Virus record (IMG/VR): IMGVR_UViG_3300042910_000038
Source: a virus
Direction: 5' to 3' (one strand)
DNA length: 64,000 nt
Of this stretch, positions 407 to 36,548 are shown piece after piece; the stretch's first letter is position 1, and each line of letters starts with the position of its first letter. A program made the position numbers and the translations under genes. The notes below the pieces were generated by a model. It worked only from the letters and a program-made list of their open reading frames with translations. It had not been told where the DNA came from and did no database searches.

Positions 407-922
407 GTGAGGTGTATGGTTAGGGTTACTGTTGAGCCTTCAACTTTGATGGGTAAGGTTGGCGACAGGGTTGGCGCTAAGGTCTGCGTTTATGGCGTTT
501 CAAACCTATGGGCTTTCGACGTGACGCTTTCATGGGACCCGAAGGTTCTTAAGCTTGTAAGCCACGATTTCGGAACTTTCCTTCGCCCGTCAGACCCAAC
601 TAAGGTTGAGATTTACACTAGGGAATGGAATGGAAACTCTGAGCTTGGCGCTAAGCTTGTAGAGCCTGAATCTCCTAAAAGCGGAGACGGCGTATTAACA
701 ATGATAGTGTGGGAAGTTCTATCCACATCCTATACGAAAATCAACATAACAAGCAAGCTGGTTGACCCAGATGCAAACCTTATAGCTCATGACGCTTTTG
801 GAGCCGAGTTTGGACAGAAATTCGACGTGCAAGCGGTTATTGACACAATAGTTCCAATATTTGCAGTAGTATTCATAGTTCCAGTCTTAAAGACGCTGTT
901 TAAGTCAATTAAACCAGCCTAG
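407..922 (+). CDS. Cohesin-domain protein with C-terminal coat-like membrane helix
   Basis: VYGVSNLWAFDVTLSWDPKVLKLVS..GTFL..SGDGVLTMIVWEV..LVDPDANLIAH pattern typical of archaeal cohesins; tail DVQAVIDTIVPIFAVVFIVPVLKTLFK. Confidence 0.75.
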   Translation: MRCMVRVTVEPSTLMGKVGDRVGAKVCVYGVSNLWAFDVTLSWDPKVLKLVSHDFGTFLRPSDPTKVEIYTREWNGNSELGAKLVEPESPKSGDGVLTMIVWEVLSTSYTKINITSKLVDPDANLIAHDAFGAEFGQKFDVQAVIDTIVPIFAVVFIVPVLKTLFKSIKPA

Positions 923-1007
923 AAACACATTTAGTATCGTAAGTATTGCTAAACACGGGTAACCTTTTTATTTAACCAAGCCTATTTTAGGCTATTGGAG
1001 AGCCTAA

Positions 1008-1241
1008 ATGTCGGAAAAAGTTGAACACATTGGAACGAAGACGCTGGCTCTCGTAGTGGGCATAATCCTAGCGGCAATCTACGCCCTGCTAAAGTTCTTC
1101 ACAACGCCAACCTTCGACCTTACAGACCTGTACAACATAGCCTTAGTAGCGGTCTTCTTCGGCTTCGTCTGGACAGCAATAATCTTCCTAGCCCAACTGT
1201 TCTGGAAATGGATGCACGGCATCAGCGAAAAAATAGGATAG
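1008..1241 (+). CDS. Small 2-TM membrane protein
   Basis: Two hydrophobic segments; GGAG RBS and upstream T-rich TATA. Confidence 0.7.
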   Translation: MSEKVEHIGTKTLALVVGIILAAIYALLKFFTTPTFDLTDLYNIALVAVFFGFVWTAIIFLAQLFWKWMHGISEKIG

Positions 1242-1334
1242 CCAGCCCGTAAACACCTTCTTCAAACCCCCAATTTTTCTATTTCCATCCATAAGCCTTT
1301 TATTGTTAATAATTGCTCATTCTTTTAGAGGACA

Positions 1335-1787
1335 ATGAATTCAGAGAAAATGCTTAACTCTGTTTATGGACTTGTTTTAGGAGTTGCCATTTTATCTGTT
1401 GCATTATATTTTTTCCAAAAGTTTGTTGAAGCCTCCAAGGTTACGGCAAGGGCGATGGCGCTTCACCACCTTGGAAATGGAACGATGATGACTGACGGGA
1501 CAGAGCAGAAGGTTTTTGAGTACAGCCGTGTAGAACCTTTTAAGCTTGAAGGCTACATCGACCTCTCCAACATGAAAACAGGCGACGAGATAATTATTAG
1601 ACAGTATGTGAAAATTAAACCTGACGGGGAACTTAAAAAATACTGGGAAGAAAAATATAACGGTATACAAGCTAACCCAATTTGTTATATCACGCCTAAG
1701 CCATCCATCTATGGTATACTGATTACTGTTCAGCAAACGTCTGGTTCATACATAACGTTCGACTGGGAGTTTTACATGGCTGGATGA
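1335..1787 (+). CDS. N-terminal TM plus beta-rich domain (paralogue family A)
   Basis: EPFKLEGYIDLSNMKTGDEIIIRQY shared with 2149, 17666 and 19964. Confidence 0.7.
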   Translation: MNSEKMLNSVYGLVLGVAILSVALYFFQKFVEASKVTARAMALHHLGNGTMMTDGTEQKVFEYSRVEPFKLEGYIDLSNMKTGDEIIIRQYVKIKPDGELKKYWEEKYNGIQANPICYITPKPSIYGILITVQQTSGSYITFDWEFYMAG

Positions 1788-1860
1788 CAAGGCTAAGGCA
1801 GATGAGCAAAATATATAAAAAGTTGTCCAGCCCAATCTTTAAAAGGAAGGGTAAGGATGC

Positions 1861-2136
1861 TTGAGTAGTAGAAAGGCTATACCACCATATATATATTGCC
1901 CTCGATGCGGCTCAAAACTTAACCTAATAGAAGACAACAACCCAGAAACTCTAACCAAAATCAAAGAACAAGGCTACACAGCAATAGCCAGAGGCATATG
2001 CGAATGCGGAGTAGTAGCCGTCATATGCTACCAACCACTACCAGCCTCACCAACATTCAGCCTCTTCTTCGACATATACCCAGCCGAAATAACAAGAAAA
2101 ATTTTAATAACAAGACTCCAGAATTTGCATGCGTAG
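1861..2136 (+). CDS. Zinc-finger protein
   Basis: CPRC...CECG. Confidence 0.6.
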   Translation: MSSRKAIPPYIYCPRCGSKLNLIEDNNPETLTKIKEQGYTAIARGICECGVVAVICYQPLPASPTFSLFFDIYPAEITRKILITRLQNLHA

Positions 2137-4362: not shown

Positions 4363-4604
4363 AGGAACTTGACATAATCATAAAGGCTTTAAAGCTTGAA
4401 GCACAGCAAAAACCCAACGAGCGAATCTATGTAGGCTTCAAAAGCTACACCTATGCGGAGTTTGTAGAAATGCTTAACAACCATAAAAATCTAGCCAAAG
4501 CCGAAAAAGAGTTCATCGAAAACTTCCTAAAAACAAGCCTCAAACTTTTTAAAGAAAACAAAGCATATAGGGAGAAAATCTTAACGTTGGCGGGTGAAAA
4601 GTGA
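4359..4604 (+). CDS. Small protease-partner protein, copy 1
   Basis: YVGFKSYTYAEF resembles VVGNKVYAGPEL (30528) and VLGNKAYTAEEL (36585); always directly upstream of a clan-CD-like peptidase gene. Confidence 0.6.
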   Translation: MKELDIIIKALKLEAQQKPNERIYVGFKSYTYAEFVEMLNNHKNLAKAEKEFIENFLKTSLKLFKENKAYREKILTLAGEK

Positions 4605-5452
4605 CGCTCGCCATATTGGTTGCACCCCGGTTTGATGATGCTTCATCATATAGCTATGACTGGTCCCGTGAAATAAAGAAGGTGCTTGAAGATAAAGGCT
4701 TCCAAGTAATAGACATTGGTGGCAGACCACTGTCGAGGGCGGAGGTTGAGAAGGCTTTAACTGAAAACCCAAACGCCCTTTTCGTATTTTACAATCACGG
4801 AAATGAAGACTGCCTATGGGCTTCACAAACAGAGAAAGCAGTTGATGAAGACAACGTTAAACTTTTAGCTTCAAGAGAATGCTTTACAATGGCATGCCTC
4901 AGCGCTAAACAGCTTGGAGTCGAAGCATATAAGGTTGGATGTTTAGCCTACTGGGGTTACGCTGAAGTCTTCGCGTTTACAACCGAAGATGCCGATGTTT
5001 TCAAAGAGTTTGCAAACTGCGGTTTAAAGTTTAAGCTTGAAGGAAAAACGTGGGAGGAGGCTCTCCAACAAGCAAAAAACCTCGCTAAAGAACTAGCCCA
5101 AAAACTAATAGAAGCTGGAAAATACTTCTCGTCAATACTTCTTCAACAAGATGCAGACGCGCTGAGATGCTACACGCCAAACAACCCGCCAACAGAAACA
5201 AAATGCTTTTTCAGGAAGATTGCACTTAAAATCTTTGGACCAAAACTCGGATGGAGAATAAGCAGAACAACGGGCTTTGGAATACTTTTAACGCTGGTAG
5301 GATGGGGGATTGTAGCCCACGATTTTGCACATCAAGTTTACCAGCTAAAAGGGACACCGTTAAGCTTGGAAGGCGGATACATCGGTTTAGCCCTAAACCT
5401 CATAGGCTTCATACTTTTAACGTCAGAGTTCATCAATTGGCTCAAGTACTAG
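4601..5452 (+). CDS. Clan CD (caspase/gingipain/CHAT-like) cysteine peptidase with C-terminal TM helices, copy 1
   Basis: FYNHGNEDCL (His-Gly) and FTMACLS (Cys) dyad spacing; hydrophobic C-terminus. Confidence 0.6.
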   Translation: MTLAILVAPRFDDASSYSYDWSREIKKVLEDKGFQVIDIGGRPLSRAEVEKALTENPNALFVFYNHGNEDCLWASQTEKAVDEDNVKLLASRECFTMACLSAKQLGVEAYKVGCLAYWGYAEVFAFTTEDADVFKEFANCGLKFKLEGKTWEEALQQAKNLAKELAQKLIEAGKYFSSILLQQDADALRCYTPNNPPTETKCFFRKIALKIFGPKLGWRISRTTGFGILLTLVGWGIVAHDFAHQVYQLKGTPLSLEGGYIGLALNLIGFILLTSEFINWLKY

Positions 5453-5821: not shown

Positions 5822-6445
5822 ATGGCTGAGGAAAACGCTGGCGAAGAGCCTTTACCCGGAGAAACCGAGCGTAGAAGACGTAGGATTCCGGCTATGGCTG
5901 TGTGGAACGCTGGCAGGATGCTTGGACAGTTGAAGAGGCGAAACCCGCAAATAGTTGAGGAAATAAATGAGTACGCCAAAGCAACTGGCATGACGCCGAC
6001 TCAAGTCCTTGAAGAAGCCATAAACTACTATATTGTTCGCAGGAGAATAAGCCAGTCAAACCTTACAATAGAGCAAATATACGATGCATGGATGCTTCTA
6101 AGGGAAATGCAGAAAGTAGCTGTCGACATTTGGCGAGAACAGGCAAACTACCTGTTCAGCGAGGAATACGCCCAAATGCTTGAGCTTAGGCAGGAATGGG
6201 TTAGACAGGCAATGGAAACCGCGCCGGAAAAAGCGCCCCTGCCGCCTAAAACCCTTGGAGAAATTGAAAGAAAAGTGTTGGCTAAACTTGACCCATTAAT
6301 CGACTGGATACTCGACTGGACGGTTGAAACACTTTTCAAAACCATGGCACCCATGGGAATGAAACCTCCACCCGGACTAAAAAGAAAAATACCAGTAACA
6401 GTAACATATGAAGAAGAGGAAACTGGAGGTGAAAGTGGACAATGA
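5822..6445 (+). CDS. Helical protein with possible ribbon-helix-helix-like segment
   Basis: IVEEINEYAKATGMTPTQVLEEAINYYI. Confidence 0.45.
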   Translation: MAEENAGEEPLPGETERRRRRIPAMAVWNAGRMLGQLKRRNPQIVEEINEYAKATGMTPTQVLEEAINYYIVRRRISQSNLTIEQIYDAWMLLREMQKVAVDIWREQANYLFSEEYAQMLELRQEWVRQAMETAPEKAPLPPKTLGEIERKVLAKLDPLIDWILDWTVETLFKTMAPMGMKPPPGLKRKIPVTVTYEEEETGGESGQ

Positions 6446-7110
6446 TGCGTCAGCCTGTAACCACGTTTGTCCTACAGCCGCCAAAGTTTCCATTCCCGTT
6501 GCCGGTGTGTTGGGAGTGGAAAGAGGGAGACCCGCTTCCAGAAGGCTTAACCTTCGTCAAGGGGACATTAGCTGAGGACATGTACCTTAAAATCTGCGTG
6601 GTTCAGGTTGCTCCGCCAAAAATAACCATTGAAAAGAAGAACATCGCCGAAATAGATGTTGACATTAAAGGCTCGTTGAAGTGGGTTTTCAAGAAAATCG
6701 CCGGACTTCCAGAATGGAGTGGAAAAATCGGCAAGCCGCCTGAAGACTGGGCTAAAGAAAAATGCGATGAAACCGTGCGTTACGTTAAAAGCACGTGCGA
6801 CCGGTTCGACGTTGAAGTTACAAGCGACCTAACAGAAGAGAAATTCTGTTTCGTACTGCCAACAGAGTGGCGTTTCAGAGGCATACTTAAAAACAACGCT
6901 CCGGTGCCGTTCACGATTACGGACACCAACAAGGTTTGCTTCACAGTTAAACATACAAGTCCAACGTTGATAACAATCCAGTTGATAAGCGACGTAACCC
7001 AGATGACCACAACCACGGCGAACATTGCAACATCAGCCCTAGCAATATTCCTAGTATTCTACCTTCTAATAATGATAATCAGAGCGTTTAGGGGAATGGC
7101 GGCTCGTTAG
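6442..7110 (+). CDS. Protein with C-terminal coat-like membrane helix
   Basis: Tail NIATSALAIFLVFYLLIMIIRAFRG; no signal peptide. Confidence 0.6.
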   Translation: MMRQPVTTFVLQPPKFPFPLPVCWEWKEGDPLPEGLTFVKGTLAEDMYLKICVVQVAPPKITIEKKNIAEIDVDIKGSLKWVFKKIAGLPEWSGKIGKPPEDWAKEKCDETVRYVKSTCDRFDVEVTSDLTEEKFCFVLPTEWRFRGILKNNAPVPFTITDTNKVCFTVKHTSPTLITIQLISDVTQMTTTTANIATSALAIFLVFYLLIMIIRAFRGMAAR

Positions 7111-7703
7111 TGCCAGAAGAAGATGAGGTTAAACGGGAAATAAAGGAAGCCTTAAAATCTTACATAACCGTTTACTTCGACCATCTAGTGGCAGGCTTAA
7201 CCCAGAAAGGCTACAGCGAGGAAACAGTTCGGAAAGCGCTTGCCGAAGAACTTTCAAAACCCACAACCATTGAAGCTAAAAGGCTTGCATTGTTAACTGC
7301 GGAGGACGTGAAAATGCACAGGTCAAACCCAGGCTCACCCCAAATATACATGGACGAACTTAAAACTCCCATAGAGGAGATTATAAGAAAACAGGCTGTA
7401 GAACTTTGGCGGAAAGAAAAGCATGGACCAGTACCAAAGGAAATCCCACAAGAATACTTAGATAAAGCAATGGTTGAAGTTTTAAAAAGATGGCAGAAAA
7501 CCCTAAGGGAAGTTCGGGAAACAGTTCCAAAAATGGCTCCACCGCCGGAAATGCCTCCAGAAATGGTTGAAAAAGCCATTCCAACATGCCCCCAATGCGG
7601 AACACTAATGAAAAAAATAGTTGAAACAGAAACGGGCACGTTATACCAATGCCCGAACCATCCCGGAATAACGCGGCTCATTCCAAAAGTTAAGAAGGGT
7701 TAA
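7110..7703 (+). CDS. Helical domain plus C-terminal zinc ribbon (paralogue of 7706)
   Basis: LKRWQK motif, Pro-rich linker, CPQCG...YQCPNHP. Confidence 0.6.
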   Translation: MPEEDEVKREIKEALKSYITVYFDHLVAGLTQKGYSEETVRKALAEELSKPTTIEAKRLALLTAEDVKMHRSNPGSPQIYMDELKTPIEEIIRKQAVELWRKEKHGPVPKEIPQEYLDKAMVEVLKRWQKTLREVRETVPKMAPPPEMPPEMVEKAIPTCPQCGTLMKKIVETETGTLYQCPNHPGITRLIPKVKKG

Positions 7704-7705
7704 GC

Positions 7706-8215
7706 GTGGCGCAGGCTGAACCGGTAACCGAAGAAGAGCTTACAGAGCCAGTTGAAAAACTGCTGGCTAAAGAGGCTAGACGAATCTACATGGAGGAAAC
7801 AGGCAGAATATGGGAGGAAGAGCCGCCTTCAGACGAGGAAGCCAAAGAGCTTGTCCGGAAAGCTGCAAAATCACTTTTGGAAAGATGGCAGAAAGCAATA
7901 AAAACATACTACGAAATGACAACAACAATCCTTGGAGCGCCAAAACCACCAGAATACACAGTGGTCTACTACCACGAAGGAAAAATAGTTAAACACAGAG
8001 CAAAACCGCTCCTAACACAAAAAACATATATGAAGCTAGTCCCACTAATAGACGATAAACCAGCAAAAATCCCGCCAAAGGCGCTTCTAAAATGCCCTTT
8101 CGACCCTTCTCACGGCTTCACTATGCGTCAAATAATGCCGGGGCTTTGGCAGTGCACCCAAAACCCTTCACATGTCGTTAGCATCGTAAGCTGGTTCCCG
8201 CCTAGACCGCTGTAG
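7706..8215 (+). CDS. Helical domain plus C-terminal zinc-binding motif (paralogue of 7110)
   Basis: LERWQK motif, CPFDPSH...WQCTQNPSH. Confidence 0.6.
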   Translation: MAQAEPVTEEELTEPVEKLLAKEARRIYMEETGRIWEEEPPSDEEAKELVRKAAKSLLERWQKAIKTYYEMTTTILGAPKPPEYTVVYYHEGKIVKHRAKPLLTQKTYMKLVPLIDDKPAKIPPKALLKCPFDPSHGFTMRQIMPGLWQCTQNPSHVVSIVSWFPPRPL

Positions 8216-8396
8216 CTTTAACCTTTCTCTTTGGAATGAGCTTATCGATGTATATTCGTCCGTCTTCGCCTTCAATAAAAACTACTTTGTCTCCGTCTTC
8301 AAGGTTTAATCTTACTCTGATTTCTTTGGGAATTTGCACTCTTCCATTGCTATGCACTCTTGAAATTGCAATTATCGTTTCCCATCCATAAGACAA
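8202..8396 (-). CDS. AbrB/SpoVT/MazE-family transcription regulator
   Basis: ISRVHSNGRVQIPKEIRVRLNLEDGDKVVFIEGEDGRIYI. Confidence 0.85.
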   Translation of the reverse strand: MSYGWETIIAISRVHSNGRVQIPKEIRVRLNLEDGDKVVFIEGEDGRIYIDKLIPKRKVKATAV

Positions 8397-8429
8397 TAAA
8401 ACGTTCTCCGTTTTATCCGTTTTAGCCTA

Positions 8430-8446
8430 GAAACAAATATATTAAG
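8430..8446 (+). promoter_or_regulatory. BRE/TATA promoter of the candidate major structural operon
   Basis: GAAACAAATATATTAAG about 50 bp upstream of AGGAGGT RBS and ATG 8495. Confidence 0.55.
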
Positions 8447-8494
8447 ACTCCTTAAAAGCTTTTCCATGAACAAGAAAAGGAGGTAAAGTGGAAA

Positions 8495-8809
8495 ATGGGA
8501 AGACGTGCTAAATACCCAAGCCCCGAGTTGGCTGTAAGCCACTTCACAGCCGCCGTCAGCGATGCTTCAACACAGGCTAAATGGGGTACAAGGGCTGCTG
8601 AAGGCGCAGGCAAGCTTGGCGACTGGTTCAGAATGGTGCTTCCAGGCTTATACGCTAAGATTGCAACCCTTCCAGTTGAGCCTAAAGACCCATGGGCTGA
8701 GCGCTCAAAGCCTGTTGGTCAATACATAAAGAGCAAGAAGGCTGAATACAGAAAGGCTAAATTGAGGGCTTTGGCGGGCATAGGTGCCTCACCAGCGACA
8801 CCCGCATAG
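8495..8809 (+). CDS. Small basic helical protein, candidate nucleocapsid/DNA-binding major structural protein
   Basis: Lys/Arg/Ala-rich 104 aa, strong RBS and promoter, upstream of coat-like peptides; function is inference. Confidence 0.45.
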   Translation: MGRRAKYPSPELAVSHFTAAVSDASTQAKWGTRAAEGAGKLGDWFRMVLPGLYAKIATLPVEPKDPWAERSKPVGQYIKSKKAEYRKAKLRALAGIGASPATPA

Positions 8810-8828: not shown

Positions 8829-8939
8829 ATGGTCACGCCCATTGACATATCCGCCTTGCTGAACACCTTGATACCGATAATCTTCCTAGTGCTAATCATA
8901 AGTGTTCTAACAAGCCTCCTAAAGGAGTTCAAATTCTAG
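8829..8939 (+). CDS. 36-aa hydrophobic coat-like protein 1
   Basis: Manual ORF MVTPIDISALLNTLIPIIFLVLIISVLTSLLKEFKF after AGGAGG RBS. Confidence 0.8.
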   Translation: MVTPIDISALLNTLIPIIFLVLIISVLTSLLKEFKF

Positions 8940-8950: not shown

Positions 8951-9079
8951 ATGGTGACACCAATAGATGTAAGCGCCATCATAAACATGATAGTTCCAAT
9001 AATCTTCCTAGTGCTCATCGTCAGCGTCCTAACAAGCCTCATTAAAGAGTTCAAAGGCATCGGGGCTACTGCAACCTAA
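8951..9079 (+). CDS. 42-aa hydrophobic coat-like protein 2 (paralogue of 8829)
   Basis: Manual ORF MVTPIDVSAIINMIVPIIFLVLIVSVLTSLIKEFKGIGATAT after GGGTGA RBS; differences from copy 1 are mostly synonymous or conservative. Confidence 0.8.
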   Translation: MVTPIDVSAIINMIVPIIFLVLIVSVLTSLIKEFKGIGATAT

Positions 9080-9792: not shown

Positions 9793-10359
9793 ATGGCTCA
9801 AGTTTATAAAGAAGAATGGCTTATGGTCGACCACCACGGCACTTTTGTCCTTTTCTTTGGCAGTGGCGTTGTTGCAGAACAGTCGTGGAGCTTCACCCAG
9901 ATAAACATTCAGAAAGCCATATTGAAGCTTAGAATTGAAAACGTTCCGCCTGCTGGTGTGGCAAGTCTTAAAATAGAGTACTTCGACACAAAAGACCTGA
10001 CATGGAAGGAAATGGGGTTTATTGAAAAGTGGCACGGCGGCTCAGCTTACAAAGAAGTCGATGTAACCGAGATTTGTAGGAATAACCCGTCAACCAAATG
10101 GCGTGCCATAGTTGACATTTTTTATCCATGGGTTTTTTTCTACACATGTCTGCATTCAAGGGCATTATTGTACCTAGAATATACCGGCGGGGCACCTCAA
10201 GTACAAGGAGTAACATCCGAAACGCCGTTTGGACCAGCAGAAATGGCTTCAGTCGCCCAAATGATGGATTTTATGATGCAGTTTATGATGATGTTTATGA
10301 TGATGAGCTTAGTGACCTCTATGATTAGCGCTATGGTTGGAGCCTTTGGAGGGAGTTAA
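9793..10359 (+). CDS. Beta-rich domain with Met-rich C-terminal helix
   Basis: Tail QMMDFMMQFMMMFMMMSLVTSMISAM. Confidence 0.65.
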   Translation: MAQVYKEEWLMVDHHGTFVLFFGSGVVAEQSWSFTQINIQKAILKLRIENVPPAGVASLKIEYFDTKDLTWKEMGFIEKWHGGSAYKEVDVTEICRNNPSTKWRAIVDIFYPWVFFYTCLHSRALLYLEYTGGAPQVQGVTSETPFGPAEMASVAQMMDFMMQFMMMFMMMSLVTSMISAMVGAFGGS

Positions 10360-10360
10360 A

Positions 10361-10486
10361 ATGCCCGAAGTTGAGTATGACCCTGTAACCCTAACCTTAA
10401 TAATCATCTACAACTCAATAATAATTGGAATGACTATAAAATGGCTAATTCCAGAAGTAAGAAAGCTAATTAAAGGGGGTGAATAG
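10361..10486 (+). CDS. 41-aa coat-like membrane peptide
   Basis: Manual ORF MPEVEYDPVTLTLIIIYNSIIIGMTIKWLIPEVRKLIKGGE. Confidence 0.65.
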   Translation: MPEVEYDPVTLTLIIIYNSIIIGMTIKWLIPEVRKLIKGGE

Positions 10487-10489: not shown

Positions 10490-10930
10490 ATGGCGAAGGT
10501 TGAGATTAAGATAGTGGCTAAGCCAACTACAGACATCTACACTAGGTACCACGGCAAAGCAATAGACGTCGATTTACCGCTAGACTGGTATAAAGAAGGA
10601 ACTGCAAGCCCATACTACATTAAGACAAGCAAAGAGGCGTTTGAGCACACGCAAACGGTTGACCTAAGCCCAGGCAAGCACACTATACGATATTCAGCCG
10701 CGTCAACGGCTGATGGATACTATTGGGAAGCCGAGGTTTTCGTGAACGGTCAATCGTTAGGCGTTCAATCCGACCTATGGTACAAGAAACAGTATGTGGC
10801 TGAGTTTGAGGTTAAACCAACCCTTGAAGATACAATCTCAAGCTTCACGGGCACTTTTATGAGCATAATGATGCTGGTGCTAATCATAAGTCTGCTAACG
10901 GCAGTAATAAAGGGATTTAAAAAGAAGTGA
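10490..10930 (+). CDS. Beta-sandwich domain with coat-like C-terminal helix
   Basis: Tail MLVLIISLLTAVIKGFKKK matches LVLIISVLTSLLKEFK of 8829. Confidence 0.65.
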   Translation: MAKVEIKIVAKPTTDIYTRYHGKAIDVDLPLDWYKEGTASPYYIKTSKEAFEHTQTVDLSPGKHTIRYSAASTADGYYWEAEVFVNGQSLGVQSDLWYKKQYVAEFEVKPTLEDTISSFTGTFMSIMMLVLIISLLTAVIKGFKKK

Positions 10931-14048: not shown

Positions 14049-15023
14049 ATGCCGGATGCCGAAATACTTTCAATAAAAGTTAAAGACGAGACAACAGGCG
14101 TTGTATTCGACGTCTACCCGGGTGGGCAGAAGCCTTTCATAACTTGGACTCCGGACTGGTCTGCGAAATGGAAGTTTCAAGAGTTAACCGTTAGAAACAA
14201 CACAAGCAAATATGTAGTCATATACGTTCATATAGAGCGTGATGGCACTACGCTTAGCATTCTCTCCGGTGGTTTTTCTCTAGGAGAAACGAAGGACTTC
14301 GCACCAAGTATGGCGGCAGTTCCCGCTTATTATGCTCCTCCAACGAGCTACAAGGTGTGGACGGAGATTGGCGGGGTTAAATCCCACGAGGTTCCTTTCA
14401 CTCTAGGTGAAGGCAACTTTGTTAAAACCATACCTTTCCATCCTAATGCTTGGATAGAATACACAACAACAGGGCTTCTTTCAGACAAAATCCCCGGCTG
14501 GCTAATATACTCCCACGGGGCAACAGCAACGCTGACAGTTAAGCTTGGCTGGGTTAAACTTGGCGGCGTCGAATATAAAGGATGGGGCGGAGCATGGCTT
14601 ATAGACGGGGCTTTAAAGCCAAACCCGGTAACTCTGACAGTTGACCACAACGTCACAGCACAATCATTGCCAGGAGCATTCTCGCCGTTCCTACCGCTTG
14701 AAGATATAAACCTAGACGGAAAGATAGATGCCAAAGACCTTGCTTTGGTTTGTCGCGCTTGGGGTTCCAAAGTTGGCGACCCGAGGTATGACCCTCTGGT
14801 TGATTTTAATGGAGATGGGCAAATAGACGCGAAGGATTTGGGCTTAGTTTGCAGAGAATTTGGAAAGGTAAATGAGTCACCGCCTCGTGCGACAACGCTT
14901 TACGAGGCTAGGGCTGCGGTTAGCGCTATGACCTCGCAGGCTATGGCTGGAGCCGCTGCCACCGCAGCCGGCATCATTTTAACTGAAACTGCTAGGAAAA
15001 TCATGCGTGAGGTGAAGAAGTGA
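14049..15023 (+). CDS. Dockerin-domain protein with C-terminal helix
   Basis: EDINLDGKIDAKDLALVCRAWG...VDFNGDGQIDAKDLGLVCREFG (duplicated Ca-loop). Confidence 0.85.
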   Translation: MPDAEILSIKVKDETTGVVFDVYPGGQKPFITWTPDWSAKWKFQELTVRNNTSKYVVIYVHIERDGTTLSILSGGFSLGETKDFAPSMAAVPAYYAPPTSYKVWTEIGGVKSHEVPFTLGEGNFVKTIPFHPNAWIEYTTTGLLSDKIPGWLIYSHGATATLTVKLGWVKLGGVEYKGWGGAWLIDGALKPNPVTLTVDHNVTAQSLPGAFSPFLPLEDINLDGKIDAKDLALVCRAWGSKVGDPRYDPLVDFNGDGQIDAKDLGLVCREFGKVNESPPRATTLYEARAAVSAMTSQAMAGAAATAAGIILTETARKIMREVKK

Positions 15024-15577
15024 TGGTTTGGCTTCCGCCTCGAGAAGTAACCGTTGGAGAGGTTCTGCCGTCCGAATATTTGACGGTTCAACCTGCTGAC
15101 GGCGCTAAACCCGCTTCAATAGTTGACTCGATGCCTGACCCGTTAACTGTTGAAATCAAAGCGCAGAACATTATGCTTCTGGAAATGGATATACCTGTGT
15201 ATCTTGAAAACCGTGGCTTCTCAAAGTCTCAAGTTGCGGCGTACGTATCTAACGTCTCAATGAGTGCAAGACAGTTCAAGTTCCATTTAGATGTTCAACC
15301 GCCGTTCTTCTTAACAGCGCATTTGCCTAAACAGTGGAGGGTTAGGAGCGCAACTGTTGACGGGAAAACTCCGGAGCTTTACGCCTACGACCCAGACGCA
15401 AACACAGTTTTTGTGGGGATAACTGAAACTTCTTCTCCGGTTGACGTCGTTCTCCAGCTTGAGCCAACGATGGAGTCGATTACAAACGCTGTTGTAGGAG
15501 TCTTCGCCATAATAATCATTGTACCATTCATTAAAGCCGTAATCAAAGAGGCTATCGAAGCTTTCAGGAAGCGCTAA
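15020..15577 (+). CDS. Beta-rich domain with coat-like C-terminal helix
   Basis: Tail TMESITNAVVGVFAIIIIVPFIKAVIKEAIEAFRKR. Confidence 0.65.
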   Translation: MMVWLPPREVTVGEVLPSEYLTVQPADGAKPASIVDSMPDPLTVEIKAQNIMLLEMDIPVYLENRGFSKSQVAAYVSNVSMSARQFKFHLDVQPPFFLTAHLPKQWRVRSATVDGKTPELYAYDPDANTVFVGITETSSPVDVVLQLEPTMESITNAVVGVFAIIIIVPFIKAVIKEAIEAFRKR

Positions 15578-15583: not shown

Positions 15584-16207
15584 ATGCCTGCTGAAACAAG
15601 GTTTCTCAGAGCCGATGCCCACACAGTTAACGGTTTAACAGCATACAAGTTTGGGAAGGAGCCAAGCGTAGCTTCAGACTCTTTAGGAATAAGCGTCTAT
15701 TTGGCTGAAACTTATGCAGACCAGTACTTGGCGGTGGAAGTTTGCAGGAGAAGCAAGGACGGGAAAGAAACGTCGATAAGCGGAGGCTTAATTGGCGAAG
15801 TTAAGGGAAACGACACGGGGCTTTTAACTGCTAAATGGAAGTGTCCAAAGGTTGATTTAGCCCCAGCAGACGCAATTGTTCTACACGTTTACGGCGGAAC
15901 ATCTTCACCGCCAAGCAATCTTTTAGCATCCTTCATAACTGAGCCTTTAGGCGCTAAAAGCCTCGATGAGGCTGAATGGACAATAAACCTCATGCTTGAA
16001 AGGAAATATGAGGTTGTAGACTCCCAGCCAATAACAACATACAGCCTACTAATAGGCTCAACATCCTACATTGAAAACTTCACGTGGACTCCATACGTTT
16101 TAGTAGCCGAATTTATACCACAGGCTGTTCAGTTAATCAGCGCAATGCTTGTCCTCATCTTCATAGTTTCATTATTGAAGCAAGTTGTTAGAAGCTTGAG
16201 GAGATAG
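15584..16207 (+). CDS. Paralogue family C (with 23075) plus coat-like C-terminal helix
   Basis: MPAETRFLRADAHTVNGLTAY vs MPTETRYMRSDQQTINGLTAY; both contain ENFTWTPY. Confidence 0.65.
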   Translation: MPAETRFLRADAHTVNGLTAYKFGKEPSVASDSLGISVYLAETYADQYLAVEVCRRSKDGKETSISGGLIGEVKGNDTGLLTAKWKCPKVDLAPADAIVLHVYGGTSSPPSNLLASFITEPLGAKSLDEAEWTINLMLERKYEVVDSQPITTYSLLIGSTSYIENFTWTPYVLVAEFIPQAVQLISAMLVLIFIVSLLKQVVRSLRR

Positions 16208-16209: not shown

Positions 16210-17367
16210 TTGCAGTATGAGTTCACTGTTCCGGCTCACCACGTTTTTCTCGTTAAAACTGGAACTTACACGTATGATGTTTATTATCCTAAACAGTTAA
16301 ACAACGGGATAACCAATTACGTTTGTAGGGAATTCGCAAAACGCACGGTAGACTTCAAAACCGACCCGCCGGAATGGAAAGAAGAAAAAACAATTGATGT
16401 GGCTTCTCCAAGCGGTTTTGCAAACCCCGTTCTGCCATACAAGAACATTCTAGGCTATGACTTTTACAGGAAGCGAATCCTTTTTGTTCTAGGGGAATGG
16501 GATGGAAAATCGTGGCTTTTTCAGGGGACAAGGGCTAAACTTTTAGCCGTAGACCTAGGCTTCTCCAAGGCTGAGGTTCTAAACGACGACCTTTTCACGT
16601 TGGCACAAGAAGCTGTTCCGGAAGCTACACATATTAAGGGGTATGCAAACTTCGGCGGCTACGGTGGTAAACTGGTTGGCATACTTGCCGTATATTCCAA
16701 TGCAGAGGAAAGGTCTGTTGCTCTGGTTTTTGACGGTTCAAGCTGGTATGCTGTTAGAGCCAACACTAGACGGGATACAGTGCAGGAAGGAGTTGTCCCA
16801 ATATGGGATACCAAGGACAATTTTATAGGCTGGCTTACGGAAGGTCACAGCGATAACAGCCACTTCATAAGGATAAGTGACCTACAAGTTATACCCTGCT
16901 ACCCGCCGTTCTCAACAACAAGCGAGCCAGCCTACGACATGATAAACCACAAAATAGTTTGGACGGAGTGGGGGGCAGGCGAGGCAATATCCCAGAGAAT
17001 ATACGTTTCAGACCCAGACCCGACAAACGGATGCATAAACTTCAGAAATGCAACTCCATACGGAACAGTAAAGGATAATGAAGGAAACACCATAAACTTG
17101 ACGATAATGAGCAAGTATGCCCCAAGCATATTCCAAAACGGAGCCAACAAATGGCTTGTTATAGGGGCTTTCAGAGGCGGCATCCCAGAAGGGTTCCACA
17201 GAGTTTTCAAAGTCGATTTGGAAAGCTATTCAGATGCAAGCAAGTGGGACTTAATTAAAGACCCGTCTGGAAACGATAAGCTTGTTAAGGGAATGGTCAC
17301 ATGCATAAGCACCGATGGGAAACCTTTACCGGCTCCAATGTTCCCAGTCACTCCGTCTAGAGGTTGA
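16210..17367 (+). CDS. Hypothetical beta-rich protein
   Basis: 385-aa ORF in operon, no anchor or recognisable motif. Confidence 0.55.
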   Translation: MQYEFTVPAHHVFLVKTGTYTYDVYYPKQLNNGITNYVCREFAKRTVDFKTDPPEWKEEKTIDVASPSGFANPVLPYKNILGYDFYRKRILFVLGEWDGKSWLFQGTRAKLLAVDLGFSKAEVLNDDLFTLAQEAVPEATHIKGYANFGGYGGKLVGILAVYSNAEERSVALVFDGSSWYAVRANTRRDTVQEGVVPIWDTKDNFIGWLTEGHSDNSHFIRISDLQVIPCYPPFSTTSEPAYDMINHKIVWTEWGAGEAISQRIYVSDPDPTNGCINFRNATPYGTVKDNEGNTINLTIMSKYAPSIFQNGANKWLVIGAFRGGIPEGFHRVFKVDLESYSDASKWDLIKDPSGNDKLVKGMVTCISTDGKPLPAPMFPVTPSRG

Positions 17368-17371
17368 GAGT

Positions 17372-17545
17372 ATGTCTGAAAAGCCTATTGAAGCCAAAGT
17401 GCTTTACAACACGTTGAAAACTCCGCTACAAATAGCCATAGAAGAAATCGTAATACTTGCAGGCGGCGTGATTGCCATAATCTCGCTTTCTCCATTGCTG
17501 AAAAGCTTAATTAAAAGCTTGGTTGAAAAGGTTCATGGCGAATAA
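17372..17545 (+). CDS. 57-aa coat-like membrane peptide
   Basis: Start reassigned to ATG 17372; IEEIVILAGGVIAIISLSPLLKSLIKSLVEK. Confidence 0.6.
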   Translation: MSEKPIEAKVLYNTLKTPLQIAIEEIVILAGGVIAIISLSPLLKSLIKSLVEKVHGE

Positions 17546-17547: not shown

Positions 17548-17676
17548 ATGGCTGAAACACCATACTATTATCCGATTCCATCCCCATTAATAGAATCGAT
17601 TACAGCTCTAGCCTTGCTTATGATACTTTTAAGTCTAACGTCAAGTATCGTGAGGACACTTAAATATGGAGGCTGA
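17548..17676 (+). CDS. 42-aa coat-like membrane peptide
   Basis: Manual ORF MAETPYYYPIPSPLIESITALALLMILLSLTSSIVRTLKYGG. Confidence 0.65.
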   Translation: MAETPYYYPIPSPLIESITALALLMILLSLTSSIVRTLKYGG

Positions 17677-19538: not shown

Positions 19539-19964
19539 GTGCTCAAGACGGAACACTATCATACTGATGAGGTTGAGGTTAGCGTAGCCTCTCGGGAGTG
19601 GAAGCCTGCTAAATATCTTGAGTTTGAGAAGGACGGCTTCAACTGCAACATTATTAAGATGCTGATTTTCGCTGACTTGAAGGTTCCGCCTGAGGAGACT
19701 AAGGGCTACTTGGGAATTTTCGTTAACGATGAGGTTAACCCGCGAGCCGTAATCGAGTCCGACTTAACCTTCAGCAACATTTTCAAACGGGAAATAGACG
19801 TCCTCAACCTGCCTTTTGGAAGGCATAAGCTTATACTGAAAATGAAAAGCGAGCAAGGCTACCCGGTAACAAACACTTTCTGGGAAGTACACATAACAAG
19901 ATTCTACAACCTATATGAAATGGCAGGATTTATCGTTCCACTAACATTACTGGCGGGACCGTAA
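19539..19964 (+). CDS. Beta-rich protein with short hydrophobic tail
   Basis: Own TATA (ACCTTATAATATT) and GAGGT RBS. Confidence 0.55.
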   Translation: MLKTEHYHTDEVEVSVASREWKPAKYLEFEKDGFNCNIIKMLIFADLKVPPEETKGYLGIFVNDEVNPRAVIESDLTFSNIFKREIDVLNLPFGRHKLILKMKSEQGYPVTNTFWEVHITRFYNLYEMAGFIVPLTLLAGP

Positions 19965-20404
19965 TGAGCGAACGCGTTTTGGAAAGAACTATTGCTTTAA
20001 CCTTCGCCGTTGTTTTAGTAGGTGTTTTAATTGCGTTTTTAATATGGTTTCTTGAAAGGCAAAAGTTGACATTAACCCATCTTGGAAGCGGAACCTTCAA
20101 GACAAGCCCAACGGAAGAGCCAATATTCGAATACACTAGAAACGAGCCTTTCACCTTCAGCGGGTATGTGAACCTTAAAAACATGGAGGATGGAGACGAG
20201 ATAATCATTAGAGAGTATGTTAAACTTGCGGTGGATGAAGATTACACGCTATACTTTGAAGAGCCCATCCACAACAAACAAAAGGAACCATTATACCACA
20301 TAGAAAAGCTTCCAGCCTTAAAAGCCATAAAAGTGACAATACAGCAAACCAAAGGAACTCCAAAATACGTTCCATGGGAGTTTTTCGGGAGCGTGGTAGC
20401 CTAA
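19964..20404 (+). CDS. N-terminal TM plus family A domain
   Basis: EPFTFSGYVNLKNMEDGDEIIIREY. Confidence 0.7.
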   Translation: MSERVLERTIALTFAVVLVGVLIAFLIWFLERQKLTLTHLGSGTFKTSPTEEPIFEYTRNEPFTFSGYVNLKNMEDGDEIIIREYVKLAVDEDYTLYFEEPIHNKQKEPLYHIEKLPALKAIKVTIQQTKGTPKYVPWEFFGSVVA

Positions 20405-30527: not shown

Positions 30528-30770
30528 ATGATGGGTATGAGCAGTCTTGAGGAGAGTTATGCTGCTTTAAAGAAGGGTTTGGCTGATTATTATAGGGCAC
30601 GGAAAGACGTGCTCTTTGTTGTTGGAAATAAGGTGTATGCTGGTCCGGAGCTTGCTAAAGAAATAGAGAATGAGACTGACGTTGGAAAACTTATGATTAA
30701 AATAGCGTTAAAAGGGACTGTTCATGATATGGCTATGGGGTGGCGTAGTTGGGCTTATACGACACAGTAA
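30528..30770 (+). CDS. Small protease-partner protein, copy 2
   Basis: GNKVYAGPELAKEIENETDVG; upstream TTTTATAAA. Confidence 0.65.
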   Translation: MMGMSSLEESYAALKKGLADYYRARKDVLFVVGNKVYAGPELAKEIENETDVGKLMIKIALKGTVHDMAMGWRSWAYTTQ

Positions 30771-31483
30771 TTTTCTCCCCGGTTTTCGACTATGCAACTA
30801 CAGTTGGTAATAACTCTTTGCATGCTGTGGTGGTTCCTTACATTAAGGCTCCATGGGTGCTGACTATGCTTGAGAAAGATAGTGCGACGAGGAGCAATTT
30901 GGAAAGTGCTTTGACAAGTAAAAACCCGTCAATTGTTTGGCTGGATAGCCACGGTAATGAAGTCTGCTTGGCTGAAACAGAGACGACTTGCGCTGTAGAC
31001 CTTACATCAGATTTATCTAAGCTTTTTAGTGGGCGTATCGTTTATATCAATGCGTGTTTATGCGGGAAGAAGTTGGCTCCAGCGATGGTTAGTGCGGGCG
31101 CTAGGGCGGTTTTAGCGTACACAGACGATGTTGTTGTTGTAATTGACCCGAGCACTAGACGAATGATAAGACCTTTTGAAGAAACCATTCTACACCCAAA
31201 AAGGCTATATGACTACATTTCCGTGGGACAAGTTTACGATGAAACAATTAAAAAATTCAATGAGTGGATTGATTGCTTAAAAGTTTGGGACCCCTCGGTT
31301 AGAGATGCGCTCTTACATGACCGTGACTGCTTTAAGCTTTTCGGAGACCCAAGTGCTGTTGTCCAATCTTCATCACAGCTAGTTGCGTCAGCCGAACGTG
31401 CTATTGCAACCGTTACAGTGGCTACTTTGCTTGTACAAACTTTTCTCATTGCAACGTTAAGAGCCGTGCTTAGGAGGAAGTAA
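30749..31483 (+). CDS. Clan CD-like cysteine peptidase with C-terminal membrane helix, copy 2
   Basis: WLDSHGNEVCL; YINACLCG. Confidence 0.6.
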   Translation: MGLYDTVIFSPVFDYATTVGNNSLHAVVVPYIKAPWVLTMLEKDSATRSNLESALTSKNPSIVWLDSHGNEVCLAETETTCAVDLTSDLSKLFSGRIVYINACLCGKKLAPAMVSAGARAVLAYTDDVVVVIDPSTRRMIRPFEETILHPKRLYDYISVGQVYDETIKKFNEWIDCLKVWDPSVRDALLHDRDCFKLFGDPSAVVQSSSQLVASAERAIATVTVATLLVQTFLIATLRAVLRRK

Positions 31484-31484: not shown

Positions 31485-33062
31485 ATGGCAACCCAAAGCG
31501 AAATAAGAAGAGCTATTGCCTATGGCGACCGGTACCTCGATAGGTTAACAGATACGGTGACATGGAAAGGGACAACCATAACGCTTCTCAAATCGTTTCC
31601 ATTTATACCAATTATTGTGTACAACAAGGGTCAGAATTTTTGGACTTTTCCTGGAGGCATGCAGTTCATTGCCTACCGTGACCCTAGTACAGGTGAATAT
31701 ATGGGTTGCATTTTCCCCTCTGTTAGCATTTACACCGAAAAGATGACAGGCGAAGAATGGGAAGGAACCTACGATTTTGGAAACAGGATTAGCTATGACT
31801 ATGAAGACCTTTTCTACTGCATGGGCGGAATAGTTATTACCGACTATGGCGTTCCTACGGTAGATGTTCACTACTGGATTGACGGAAACGATGTAGTAGT
31901 TGATTTGAAATTTTACAGAGGTTTTCCATTTGCAGCTTATATGGGTAACCAACTCATATGTGAAACCTATAAAGTTGACGAAACCCCATCTCCAAGCGAG
32001 TTTACTTTTCGTTTTCCATGGGGTGCTGGCTTAAGAAGTCATAGGTATGTTATTGACTACGACCTATTTATGTACGCTTTGTATGCATGGTATGACCGCC
32101 CAGTCCAGCGGAGCAAGGCTCAATCAATCTTCAAGTTTTTAGACGATAACGGATACCGCATTCCCAGCGTCTATGACCCGTTGTATAGACAAACCGACGG
32201 GCTTCCAGACAACTGGATTACGAACCTAGATGCTCTTCTTAAAGTTAATGACAACTACAAGTATTGTGTCGAGAGGTTCGCCGATGGTTACGGAGACTAC
32301 AAATTCGAGTTTCCGATGGGAGGTCCGCCGTGGGCTGATGAGCATGGTAAGCGTGAGGAGCCAACGCCATACTTTCCTCATCTTTCATACAAAAGCTGGT
32401 GTAGAGAGACGCTTCGAGATGTGAGCCTAGGACGTCGCCCATTTGACTCTTGGCTTGCGATGCGCGCTATGCACGTAATGAACAAGTATGGTAGCCCGTA
32501 CGCCAAAGACGACCTTGGAAACTCAGCCTACGATTACCTGATAAAGGGCTATAAAGATGACCAAGGGAATTCACGCCCTCCAATAAAGGCAAACATTACG
32601 TCAGACGGTTATCAGCCGGCAGGTTCTCCGTATTATTTCAGTCCAGCGTACATTCTTCCAGCCTTTGCTGAGCTTGGCTATGGTTTTGGTGACAGTGATG
32701 CTAAGTCTATAGCTGACTTATTAGCCGACTGCTTGGTGAAAAGTCAATGGGGCTATCAATCCAACTTTGCTGATGGGCGATATGCCACCAACGACTATGG
32801 AGTTATAAACAGACCGGAGCACATAGGCGGATTCATTAAAGCTTGGACTATGAAAAATGGTGTTTACAATGCTGTAGATGTTGGTCGTATTATGCAACAT
32901 GTTGAAAGCATTAGTGAAGTGCAAGCTTTTTCGCTATTTTGGTATTTTGATGGTTACGGTTTTGTCGGCGAAACCCCCATGTTTATGCCAACAACTTCCG
33001 AAACTACATTGGCTGCTGTGCGCGCTCTAAGAATCTATGAATCATACAAATACCGTATGTGA
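31485..33062 (+). CDS. Paralogue family B copy 2
   Basis: MATQSEIRRAIAYGDRYLDRL; AELGYGFG; RALRIYESYKYR. Confidence 0.65.
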   Translation: MATQSEIRRAIAYGDRYLDRLTDTVTWKGTTITLLKSFPFIPIIVYNKGQNFWTFPGGMQFIAYRDPSTGEYMGCIFPSVSIYTEKMTGEEWEGTYDFGNRISYDYEDLFYCMGGIVITDYGVPTVDVHYWIDGNDVVVDLKFYRGFPFAAYMGNQLICETYKVDETPSPSEFTFRFPWGAGLRSHRYVIDYDLFMYALYAWYDRPVQRSKAQSIFKFLDDNGYRIPSVYDPLYRQTDGLPDNWITNLDALLKVNDNYKYCVERFADGYGDYKFEFPMGGPPWADEHGKREEPTPYFPHLSYKSWCRETLRDVSLGRRPFDSWLAMRAMHVMNKYGSPYAKDDLGNSAYDYLIKGYKDDQGNSRPPIKANITSDGYQPAGSPYYFSPAYILPAFAELGYGFGDSDAKSIADLLADCLVKSQWGYQSNFADGRYATNDYGVINRPEHIGGFIKAWTMKNGVYNAVDVGRIMQHVESISEVQAFSLFWYFDGYGFVGETPMFMPTTSETTLAAVRALRIYESYKYRM

Positions 33063-34509: not shown

Positions 34510-35315
34510 TCGTCGAGCGTGCGCTGTCTTCCAACTTGCATGAACCTTGACGGCGAAAGAATCTTTCCTCTTCTGTAGGCTTCTGCTACAAGCCGCCTGT
34601 ACTCTCTGAACCAGCTTTCAACCCCCAAGCCCGGAACGGTGGCAACCCTTCTGCCAGCTTCAAGGTCGTATCTGTTCTTGTTGTCATACTCAACAGCTTT
34701 CCTAGGCTCCTCAATCCGCACGTAATACTGCTTAACGTCCAAAGGAGCCTCAACCTCGCTTTTGTCAATGGGTACAGCCTCAAAGTCGGGAATTCTTCCG
34801 GTTGGTCCTGGAATCTCAACAACAGCCCTTAACCACTCGTAGTGGCGTCTTCCAGCCAGAACGCTTGCAATAAACAATAGCTCTCTAAGCTCGGCTTCAA
34901 GTTCTGGCTGGGGGTCTTTAAACATCATCTCCTTCGGGTCCCATTTAGCCCACTGATACGGGTTGCGAGTGTAAACTGTGATGCGGAACTCAGCGTAAAA
35001 GTAGTATGGCGGCTTCGGAACCCGCTCGCGGAACATGTAGGCTATCCCAATCCGCCAGTATGGAGCCACAACCTTTTTTGCTAATGTAGCCCTTTCACTC
35101 CTCTCATCTCTAATGTTAGCCCAAATCTCCCTCATAATTGCTCTAACTCTCTCCAAATCCTCTGGGCGCCTGTACCAACGCCAACGGCTGGCATAGCGTC
35201 CCCACTCAACGTAAAGCCTCTCCCTAGCGCGAACCTTGTCCTCAACTCTGGCAATTTCCAGCCGCCACTCCCTTTCAGGAACCACAAGCTTAGGCTCAGT
35301 TGCCAAAACATGCAC
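34479..35315 (-). CDS. Arg/Trp-rich hypothetical protein
   Basis: 278-aa ORF in operon. Confidence 0.55.
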   Translation of the reverse strand: MHVLATEPKLVVPEREWRLEIARVEDKVRARERLYVEWGRYASRWRWYRRPEDLERVRAIMREIWANIRDERSERATLAKKVVAPYWRIGIAYMFRERVPKPPYYFYAEFRITVYTRNPYQWAKWDPKEMMFKDPQPELEAELRELLFIASVLAGRRHYEWLRAVVEIPGPTGRIPDFEAVPIDKSEVEAPLDVKQYYVRIEEPRKAVEYDNKNRYDLEAGRRVATVPGLGVESWFREYRRLVAEAYRRGKILSPSRFMQVGRQRTLDEWRAYKEEGE

Positions 35316-35319
35316 CCAA

Positions 35320-35592
35320 CTAAGCAGCTAGAAGGGTTAGTAGCTCCCTGAACTTTTTAACGTATTCCTTCCCCTTCTCAGTCGTTACAAATTTCCCATT
35401 CTCAACCTCAAGCAGGTTAAGGCTAGTCGCTATGTCAGTCAACTCTTTAAGAATTCCATAAGTGAAAGCGTTTGGGCGAGACCAGTAAATCTCAGCCAAA
35501 CTCCTAGGCTTCCTACAAAATCTAAGAATGTAGAAAAGCAGAGAATAGCGCGAAAGCTTCTTAGTCCTAAGCAGTCTTCTCTCCCGTTCCAT
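35320..35592 (-). CDS. Winged-helix transcription regulator
   Basis: LLEVENGKFVTTEKGKEYV (archaeal wHTH C-terminal signature). Confidence 0.75.
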   Translation of the reverse strand: MERERRLLRTKKLSRYSLLFYILRFCRKPRSLAEIYWSRPNAFTYGILKELTDIATSLNLLEVENGKFVTTEKGKEYVKKFRELLTLLAA

Positions 35593-35630
35593 AATAGAAA
35601 ATGATTCTATAAAACTTTTTAAACCTTATG

Positions 35631-35840
35631 CTAAAGAATCACGTATCTAGCTTCAAGCTCACCTTTACTGTTTTCTTTGAAAAACGCTTTAACAATACCT
35701 AGTTTTAAAAGTTCGAATATTAGTTCTGCAACTTCATCCCTTTTCATTCCAAGCTTTTCAGCAATCTCCGCCAAGGATAAAGGCTCACTGAAGCCTCTAA
35801 GCTTCTCGGCAAACTTTAAAACGTCAGCTTCAGCCGACAA
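35631..35840 (-). CDS. Winged-helix DNA-binding protein
   Basis: LSLAEIAEKLGMKRDEVAELIFELLKLGIV. Confidence 0.7.
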   Translation of the reverse strand: MSAEADVLKFAEKLRGFSEPLSLAEIAEKLGMKRDEVAELIFELLKLGIVKAFFKENSKGELEARYVIL

Positions 35841-36548
35841 CTAGCCTCTCCTTAAAAGCGGCATTATCGCCTTTACACTTTGAAGGATGCCGTAAAGGAC
35901 GAGGAAAGCTAAAATGAAAATGTCCGTCATACCCATAAATACGTAGGTGCTTAAGGCTATTTTGCTTTCACCCGTTCCAAACATCATAAAAGCGTCCCTG
36001 TCAGCCCTTAAAATGTCCGCTGTTGTCGGGTCCTCCTTATCCCAGAACTCAATCCACTTGTTATATTCGGCTATAGTAGCGTCATAAGCCTCTTTAGCCT
36101 TAACACCATCATACAAAACCTTAGGCTTAGTTAAACACTCCTTAAAGCCCGGCAAAGGCTCATAAGTTTGAGCGTCAACACGCAGAGTCAACAAATCAAT
36201 AAATGCGAAAACAGCTCTAGCACCGCTTTCCACCATGGCGGGAGCAAGCTTACGACCAGTCAGACACGCGTTGATAACCACTATTTTTCCGTTGAACCAC
36301 ACAGTATTCGCCAAATCCGCCACAGTTTGTCCCTCTTCCGGACCTATAACTGCATCTTCAGTCCCGTGTGATGCCAACCAAACAACCAGAGGGTAGCGCC
36401 GTAGAAAGTTGCCTAAAAGCTCAGTCTTATTAGCCCTCTCCTTATACAAATCCTCAACCAAATACATCCGTTTCCTAGCATAATCAATAACGTCAGGCAT
36501 AATCTTAGTGCTCAAAATCATTGATACAATTTCCCATGAAGGACGCAC
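35841..36548 (-). CDS. Clan CD-like cysteine peptidase with C-terminal TM, copy 3 (true start probably slightly upstream)
   Basis: WLASHGTEDAV; VINACLTG; frame open upstream as GDNDTTIVRP, matching YDTVIFSP of copy 2. Confidence 0.6.
   Translation of the reverse strand: MRPSWEIVSMILSTKIMPDVIDYARKRMYLVEDLYKERANKTELLGNFLRRYPLVVWLASHGTEDAVIGPEEGQTVADLANTVWFNGKIVVINACLTGRKLAPAMVESGARAVFAFIDLLTLRVDAQTYEPLPGFKECLTKPKVLYDGVKAKEAYDATIAEYNKWIEFWDKEDPTTADILRADRDAFMMFGTGESKIALSTYVFMGMTDIFILAFLVLYGILQSVKAIMPLLRRG

Follow-up and report, generated by a model that had tools for sequence, protein, structure and literature searches.

A short C-terminal helix module shared by free peptides and unrelated proteins of a putative archaeal virus-like element from hot springs

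IMG/VR virus record IMGVR_UViG_3300042910_000038 comprises 64,000 nucleotides of DNA, the whole of which is called here the window. Small hydrophobic peptides are encoded alone in it, and larger proteins end in hydrophobic, then basic, tails. This raises the question of whether one and the same helix is used in both ways and, if so, what it would do. The original prediction, made from the letters of positions 407 to 36,548, proposed a natural display system, in which many unrelated domains end in a coat-like helix that co-assembles with its free form into the virion coat or envelope. Our comparisons point to a homologous module of about 33 residues, carried by the free peptides and by a smaller set of tailed proteins than first proposed, for which an anchoring role is the most likely one. 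In what follows, the domain that precedes a tail is called its cargo.

The helix module and the proteins that carry it

The set searched comprised 591 open reading frames (ORFs) of at least 30 residues, taken from all six frames of the window. A hidden Markov model (HMM) built from the free peptides only recovered the tails of the cohesin protein at 407 (expect value, E, 1.8e-6) and of the 146-residue protein at 10490 (E 3.1e-6) and no further ORF of the 591, the next best having E 1.7. Because HMMER statistics are imperfect on hydrophobic segments, shuffle controls were used. The two tails scored 28.1 and 26.0 bits, as compared to shuffle maxima of 17.6 and 13.7 bits, and these values were reached by none of 2000 full shuffles and by none of 2000 shuffles in which charged and polar positions were held (fixed-polar shuffles). 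The proposed match between the stand-alone peptides at 8829 and 8951 and these two tails was thus borne out. With a profile widened to the peptides plus the 407 and 10490 tails, 15020-15577 and 15584-16207 scored 23.5 and 17.4 bits, each value being reached by 0/2000 full and 1/2000 fixed-polar shuffles. The score of the ORF at 17315-17545, reached by 9-29 of 2000 shuffles, is marginal.

An ungapped alignment of 33 residues unites the free peptides with the C-terminal ends of 407-922, 10490-10930, 15020-15577 and, more weakly, 15584-16207, and includes orthologues. The module starts with polar or acidic residues. Its apolar core, of 20-23 residues, has a conserved P/S/G together with an S/P-x-L-T/K turn, and K-x-[FI]-[KR] comes after it. 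The 15020 tail is of the IVP-x-x-K subtype, as on the cohesin protein. Overall, judged by alignment and shuffling, the free peptide and the tails of four unrelated proteins are homologous and conserved position by position.

The tails of 6442, 9793, 10937, 14049, 30749, 35841 and 4601 gave scores indistinguishable from those of their own shuffles, as did 10337-10486 and 17548-17676, which encode small peptides. Generic tails of this kind consist of a hydrophobic C-terminal membrane segment, then basic residues, and have only composition in common with the module. By this comparison, the list given in the original prediction is a true homologous module mixed with generic anchors. Among the other tails that it named, 15020 and 15584 were recovered by the widened profile, and 6442, 9793, 10937, 30749 and 35841 dropped out, sharing composition only; among the small ORFs, 10337 and 17548 stayed at shuffle level and 17315 is marginal. 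The idea of many unrelated domains with the same helix holds as far as the cargos are indeed unrelated, the number being reduced to four fusions in the window, perhaps five; the peptidase-like proteins and several others have generic anchors. Conservation by position, as opposed to generic transmembrane composition, is found on 407, 10490, 15020 and 15584; the remaining tails are generic. In agreement with what had been noted, no N-terminal hydrophobic segment or signal peptide is present on any fusion. None of the fusion ORFs can be extended, each being read from its earliest possible start codon.

The two free peptide genes are each preceded by a ribosome-binding site (GGAGG/GGGTG). Orthologues of peptide B are found in two relatives of the window (L002, 2579-2698; L005, 6370-6495) and as protein P0013. 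Peptides A and B differ by a nonsynonymous divergence (dN) of 0.18 and a synonymous divergence (dS) of 1.06. Over free-peptide paralogues and orthologues, dN ranges from 0.03 to 0.27 and dS from 0.4 to more than 1.5, with conservative replacements, and the dN/dS of about 0.1-0.17, at dS values of at least 1, corresponds to purifying selection. Two tandem peptide copies are also kept in L009, a more divergent relative. Because of the low dN/dS and of this retained tandem pair, the free peptides are, on evolutionary grounds, real genes. Their net charge is close to 0 (isoelectric point, pI, 5.8), with a weakly basic C-end (K32/K35). A search of the ESM Atlas returned no usable match for the free peptide. 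The pair lies directly 3′ of the gene at 8495-8809 and ahead of a T-rich gap, and the order of the basic-protein gene and then the peptide genes is the same in L002 and L005. All three genes probably share one transcript, and the 8495-8809 product is a candidate DNA-binding partner. As a separate observation, the 8495-8809 protein and peptide B have in common a Gly/Ala/Thr/Pro ending of the GIGA[ST] type (LAGIGASPATPA; KGIGATAT), which could be a common processing or glycosylation site.

Table 1. Position and main characters of the features considered in the window
Feature	Coordinates	Strand	Characters
Free peptide A	8829..8939	+	36 aa; single helix, acidic N-flank (D6), 23-residue apolar core, KEFK end
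Free peptide B	8951..9079	+	42 aa; paralogous to A and in tandem with it; seed of the family
Cohesin protein	407..922	+	Pfam Cohesin 4.9e-10, residues 8-125; tail module DNA 818-916
146-aa protein	10490..10930	+	beta-rich cargo, no family match; tail module DNA 10826-10924
185-aa protein	15020..15577	+	unrelated cargo; tail module DNA 15461-15574
207-aa protein	15584..16207	+	weaker module copy, DNA 16112-16204
76-aa ORF	17315..17545	+	marginal likeness to module; start codon uncertain; E 0.03 (widened profile)
104-aa basic protein	8495..8809	+	pI 10.2, net charge +10; immediately 5′ of peptide genes
Generic C-terminal membrane anchor	6442..7110	+	outside the module family; same kind: 4601-5452, 9793-10359, 10937-12394, 30749-31483, 35841-36548 (-)
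Separate small single-helix peptide family	10337..10486	+	conserved in relatives, not alignable with module
Another small single-helix peptide family	17548..17676		conserved in relatives, not alignable with module
Dockerin-bearing protein	14049..15023	+	Dockerin_1 1.8e-9, residues 218-269; weakly hydrophobic basic end
Second dockerin ORF	1-342	-	Dockerin_1 7.5e-11
Jelly-roll domain paralogue	19964..20404	+	AlphaFold2 model, predicted local distance difference test (pLDDT) 86.8; paralogues 1335-1787, 2149-2841, 17666-18145

Distribution of the module and exchange of cargos

A profile of the module was compared to 1.84 billion representative proteins and gave nine matches at E <= 1e-3, all within one group of Yellowstone hot-spring elements. 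These matches correspond to free peptides and to proteins of 146/152, 171, 184, 197 and 235 residues; the match for 15020-15577 was protein P0012. Across the known relatives, the module is found behind at least six mutually unrelated types of cargo, and BLAST between cargo classes detected no similarity.

In the slot upstream of the orthologue of 10937, the cargo differs among relatives. L010 has there the 197-residue protein P0019 and L002 a 156-residue protein, and the DNA likeness between these two genes is limited to the 89-base tail (77.5%). As read from such alignments, the cargo is replaced in relatives exactly at the tail boundary. The protein at 23075-23626 is a paralogue of 15584-16207 (BLAST 2e-24) without the tail, and L005 has one additional tailed gene absent from the window. 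In P0020, a cohesin homologue at 55% identity, the tail is retained and correspondingly diverged. At the DNA level, peptide gene 8829 and the core of the 10490 tail are identical at 22 of 26 bases and share a 15-base run of identical codons, a sign that the stand-alone gene and the fused tails may have exchanged sequence. Overall, comparison of the relatives indicates that the module moves between cargos. On a larger scale, the three-gene block at 10490-14047, which encodes the tailed 146-residue protein and proteins of 485 and 549 residues, acts as a movable cassette: position 10474 is joined directly to 14046/14049 in contigs from two other hot-spring runs, and the block stands elsewhere in L002, at 6889-11629.

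The close, mosaic relatives of the window (L001-L007, L009-L012) are metagenome contigs only. DNA of the element is present in many hot-spring and sediment metagenome runs dated 2017 to 2025, and papers on Yellowstone hot springs name one source sample. The window itself is divided into a plus-strand block, from 407 to about 33,000, of structural-looking genes and a minus-strand block, from about 33,000 to 64,000, of replication and zinc-ribbon genes. RadA, ParB, PCNA, an AAA/MCM-like ATPase, methyltransferases and a DUF4214 protein with an intein were recognised in it. About 45 window proteins were scanned against Pfam and smaller subsets against PHROGs and NCBIfam, the scan covering a part of the left-arm ORFs and a minority of the right-arm ones. 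The window contains no tRNA gene, and no DNA or protein match to it was found in the phage collection. RadA was dropped as a host marker, its 32% match to a Woesearchaeota genome being uninformative on the host. We infer that the window represents an archaeal virus-like element, undescribed so far, that may form particles.

Possible roles of the helix

That the helix is encoded alone as well suggests co-location or co-assembly of the free and fused forms. The module would act as an anchor for a membrane or a hydrophobic coat. We give a probability of about 0.5 to the reading that this portable anchor helix brings diverse binding or enzyme domains together with the free peptide, all of them residing in the membrane or coat of one particle that is built within the cell. 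The carrier would presumably be a virion. Since cargos of usually extracellular kinds (cohesin, beta-sandwich) have no signal peptide, the tailed proteins would enter the lipid-containing shell of the intracellular particle once translated, with the tail going in first. The cargo would be left on the side facing the cytoplasm, which would become the particle exterior, and the basic end would point inward. Through the helix that they share with the free peptide, the tailed proteins would reach the membrane patch or lattice in which it resides, and cargos would be swapped by recombination at the tail boundary. Because duplicated genes under selection also produce the helix by itself, it would be a structural component and not a discarded signal. 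Tail-anchored proteins lack a signal peptide and have a single membrane segment, placed no more than about 40 residues from the C-terminus; both features are found in the window fusions. Tail-anchored spike or envelope proteins of internally enveloped viruses have their cargo facing the cytoplasm, as proposed here. The setting in the left arm supports such a role, with its C-terminal anchors, small membrane peptides, N-anchored jelly-roll knobs, two dockerins and predicted glycosyltransferases. A filamentous archaeal virus from hot springs is known to gain its envelope inside the cell (Baquero et al. 2021, as cited in PMC10791045).

Several points weigh against this anchoring in an intracellular particle. 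Recombination alone, without any specific helix-helix contact, could keep the tails homologous. With an acidic N-flank and a basic C-flank, the positive-inside rule would favour an N-out/C-in orientation in a cell membrane, a route that large cargos devoid of signal peptide could not take. None of the window proteins scanned against Pfam matched a capsid, portal or terminase/packaging family, and with no such gene recognised the carrier can be called a virion only provisionally. Finally, the relatives are few, close and mosaic and provide few independent evolutionary samples.

The free peptide might instead be the major subunit of a coat lattice or hydrophobic shell, with which the tailed proteins would co-polymerise in the role of minor subunits, so that a display library would arise naturally. 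We regard this as unlikely. Duplication of the peptide genes, their conservation, the selection acting on them, their place at the end of a short operon after a basic protein and the failure to find a conventional capsid gene among the proteins scanned would agree with such a role. The layout also recalls inoviruses. Their coat proteins (Pf3, Ff pVIII) are very small single helices, of about 45-50 residues, acidic at the N-end, apolar in the core and basic at the C-end, like the window peptides of 36-42 residues, and the last 30 or so residues of their pIII-type minor proteins, which carry outward-facing domains, have this same layout, like the window fusions. The pIII-type C-terminal helix layout is the natural basis of phage display. 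Pf3 combines a 44-residue leaderless coat protein with a 483-residue virion protein having a hydrophobic-then-basic end; the parallel with the window is one of layout, without homology. The module alignment of 33 residues gave a probability of 0.3% against the Pf3 coat protein with hhalign, hmmscan with E up to 10 recovered no coat family for the free peptide in either Pfam or PHROGs, the latter giving only unnamed families (E 0.16-0.42), the tails had no NCBIfam match at this threshold, and tblastn of the phage collection had none either. Spindle-shaped virus coat proteins (SSV1 VP1/His1 VP21) are small, very hydrophobic structural proteins from archaeal viruses of similar habitats, and these viruses are not known to have a canonical capsid fold. 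However, such coat proteins form a hairpin of two hydrophobic helices in about 70-90 residues, whereas the window peptide has one hydrophobic segment and no PHROG or Pfam match. The likeness to spindle-virus or inovirus coats that the original prediction noted therefore has no basis in sequence. An inovirus coat further carries a DNA-neutralising C-terminus, whereas a free peptide of net charge close to 0 would be unable to neutralise a double-stranded DNA genome of at least 64 kb. Inoviruses also have a small single-stranded DNA genome, a Zot-type ATPase and a secretin or equivalent, in contrast to the window element with its PCNA, RadA, ParB and presumed archaeal host; no Zot-type assembly ATPase, secretin or equivalent was found among the window proteins scanned. 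Unlike the inovirus set, moreover, the window tails are demonstrably homologous to the free peptide and exchanged between cargos. The net charge, the many membrane proteins encoded nearby and the adjacent basic protein argue for a lipid-embedded role over that of an inovirus-like, DNA-contacting coat. It is likewise doubtful that the peptide is the main shell unit of an undescribed hot-spring archaeal virus that would offer a heat-stable display platform, with cargos (cohesin, lectin-like, beta-sandwich) swapped at a fixed junction and further ones added by docking onto the cohesin.

Outside any particle, the tails could be ordinary tail-anchors to the host cell membrane, used in remodelling, exit or exclusion. 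Their likeness would then come from duplication and recombination, and the free peptide would have no relation to them, being either a small membrane protein or a pore former of the holin kind. The tail-anchored architecture, the generic nature of half of the block's C-terminal tails and the plasmid-like genes ParB, RadA and PCNA fit this explanation. Nevertheless, it is hard to see a use for cohesin, dockerin, jelly-roll knob and fibre-like domains on the cytoplasmic face of the cell membrane, and the tail is conserved by position across unrelated cargos and across cohesins diverged to 55%, and is kept precisely where the cargo has been replaced. Composition alone is common among ordinary tail anchors, whereas the window module is a specific helix, also encoded alone and moving as a cassette. 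We hold this explanation to be quite unlikely. The tail could also be a C-terminal sorting signal, cut or transferred by the proteins at 4601, 30749 and 35841 (His-Gly...Ala-Cys) in the manner of a sortase, an archaeosortase or a glycosylphosphatidylinositol (GPI) transamidase. A polar motif, a hydrophobic stretch and basic residues are the classic three-part C-terminus of such signals (LPXTG, PEP-CTERM, PGF-CTERM for sortase, exosortase and archaeosortase), and a P-[TS]-[LM]-E-[ED] junction precedes several of the tails. The three candidate enzymes (4601-5452, 30749-31483 and, on the minus strand, 35841-36548) are paralogues, which themselves end in generic anchors. H66-G67 and A98-C99 are invariant in all three, and in four sequences of this kind altogether, each pair following a hydrophobic strand, and they are plausible clan CD cysteine peptidases. 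The caspase-like fold of that clan is, however, unconfirmed, as the AlphaFold2 model of 4601-5452 is poor (pLDDT 48.5) and found only generic alpha/beta, flavodoxin-like matches (VIA-align 2, about 48,000 representative solved chains); Pfam and NCBIfam gave no match for these proteins. In addition, the substrates lack signal peptides, NCBIfam models of C-terminal sorting signals did not match the tailed proteins (E up to 10), the roughly 45 window proteins scanned included no member of a sortase or archaeosortase family, and the multi-pass protein at 45085 has no family match. Stand-alone genes also indicate that the helix is itself a functional product. Cleavage as a sorting signal is therefore very improbable.

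If the helix directs co-assembly, it would constitute a new archaeal-virus surface strategy, in which one helix is both the bulk subunit and a universal adaptor with cassette-like exchange of domains. It would give viruses assembled in the cytoplasm a route to expose usually extracellular domains without secretion signals, and it could be used as a heat-stable display scaffold. At a minimum, the data define a protein module that is new and falls into no database family, and that serves as a marker for a so far undescribed group of elements from Yellowstone hot springs.

Neighbouring genes of the window

The element has one cohesin and two dockerins, the latter being possible ligands of the anchored cohesin. 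A prediction of the complex between cohesin 407-922 (residues 1-137) and the dockerin of 14049-15023 (residues 205-285) speaks neither for nor against binding, the dockerin fold itself being uncertain. Scaffoldins of the cellulosome type similarly combine an anchored cohesin with dockerin proteins; in the window the anchor is the helix module in place of an SLH domain or sortase signal, and there are no secretion signals. The cargo of 15020 has a weak lead to a beta-sandwich in the ESM Atlas.

The jelly-roll model matched, in Foldseek, birnavirus VP2, PirA, Ena and C1q-like knobs. Three of the four paralogues have an N-terminal membrane helix, corresponding to an anchoring opposite to that of the tailed proteins, and 2149-2841 has a repeat-containing, fibre-like N-terminal extension in place of this helix. 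All four have the common end K[IV]T-x-QQT-x-G.

Two proteins look like enzymes acting on glycans. The 549-residue protein has a weak ESM Atlas lead to an (alpha/alpha)6 glycosidase-like fold (score 0.84), and both it and the 485-residue protein, the latter judged by eye from its sequence, look like helical-toroid enzymes. The proteins at 12398-14047, 31485-33062 and, on the minus strand, 43390-45042 are paralogues of 525-550 residues, with 10 homologues among 5.8 billion protein clusters. Searches of viral and genome collections yielded no relatives of the 549-residue protein or of a 141-residue one. Glycosyltransferase and NAD-epimerase Pfam matches were obtained for the genes of syntenic relatives that are orthologous to 21929-23020 and 23629-24561.

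Single C-terminal membrane segments are found in 9 of 39 left-arm proteins and in 0 of 45 right-arm proteins (Fisher p 5.8e-4). None of the proteins so anchored carries a hydrophobic segment at its N-terminus. As for the small peptides of this arm, orthologues suggest that 10337-10486 truly starts at the internal MPEVEYDP, which would give a peptide of 41 residues. The generic anchor of 9793-10359 is an unusually methionine-rich C-terminal helix (MMDFMMQFMMMFMMMSL...), kept in L002 (3389-3955) and L005 (7100-7720). The proteins at 23075-23626 and, in L002, at 16037-17806 (183 and 589 residues), otherwise different, have in common an [FY]IGDGL[ST]G ending with a few hydrophobic residues after it, which may be a second portable C-terminal module. 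Lastly, the 360-residue protein at 18386-19468, in which a segment is duplicated internally (TETASAT.YPR...NPQR.WR) and the C-terminus forms a coiled coil, has the look of a fibre and is conserved in all relatives.

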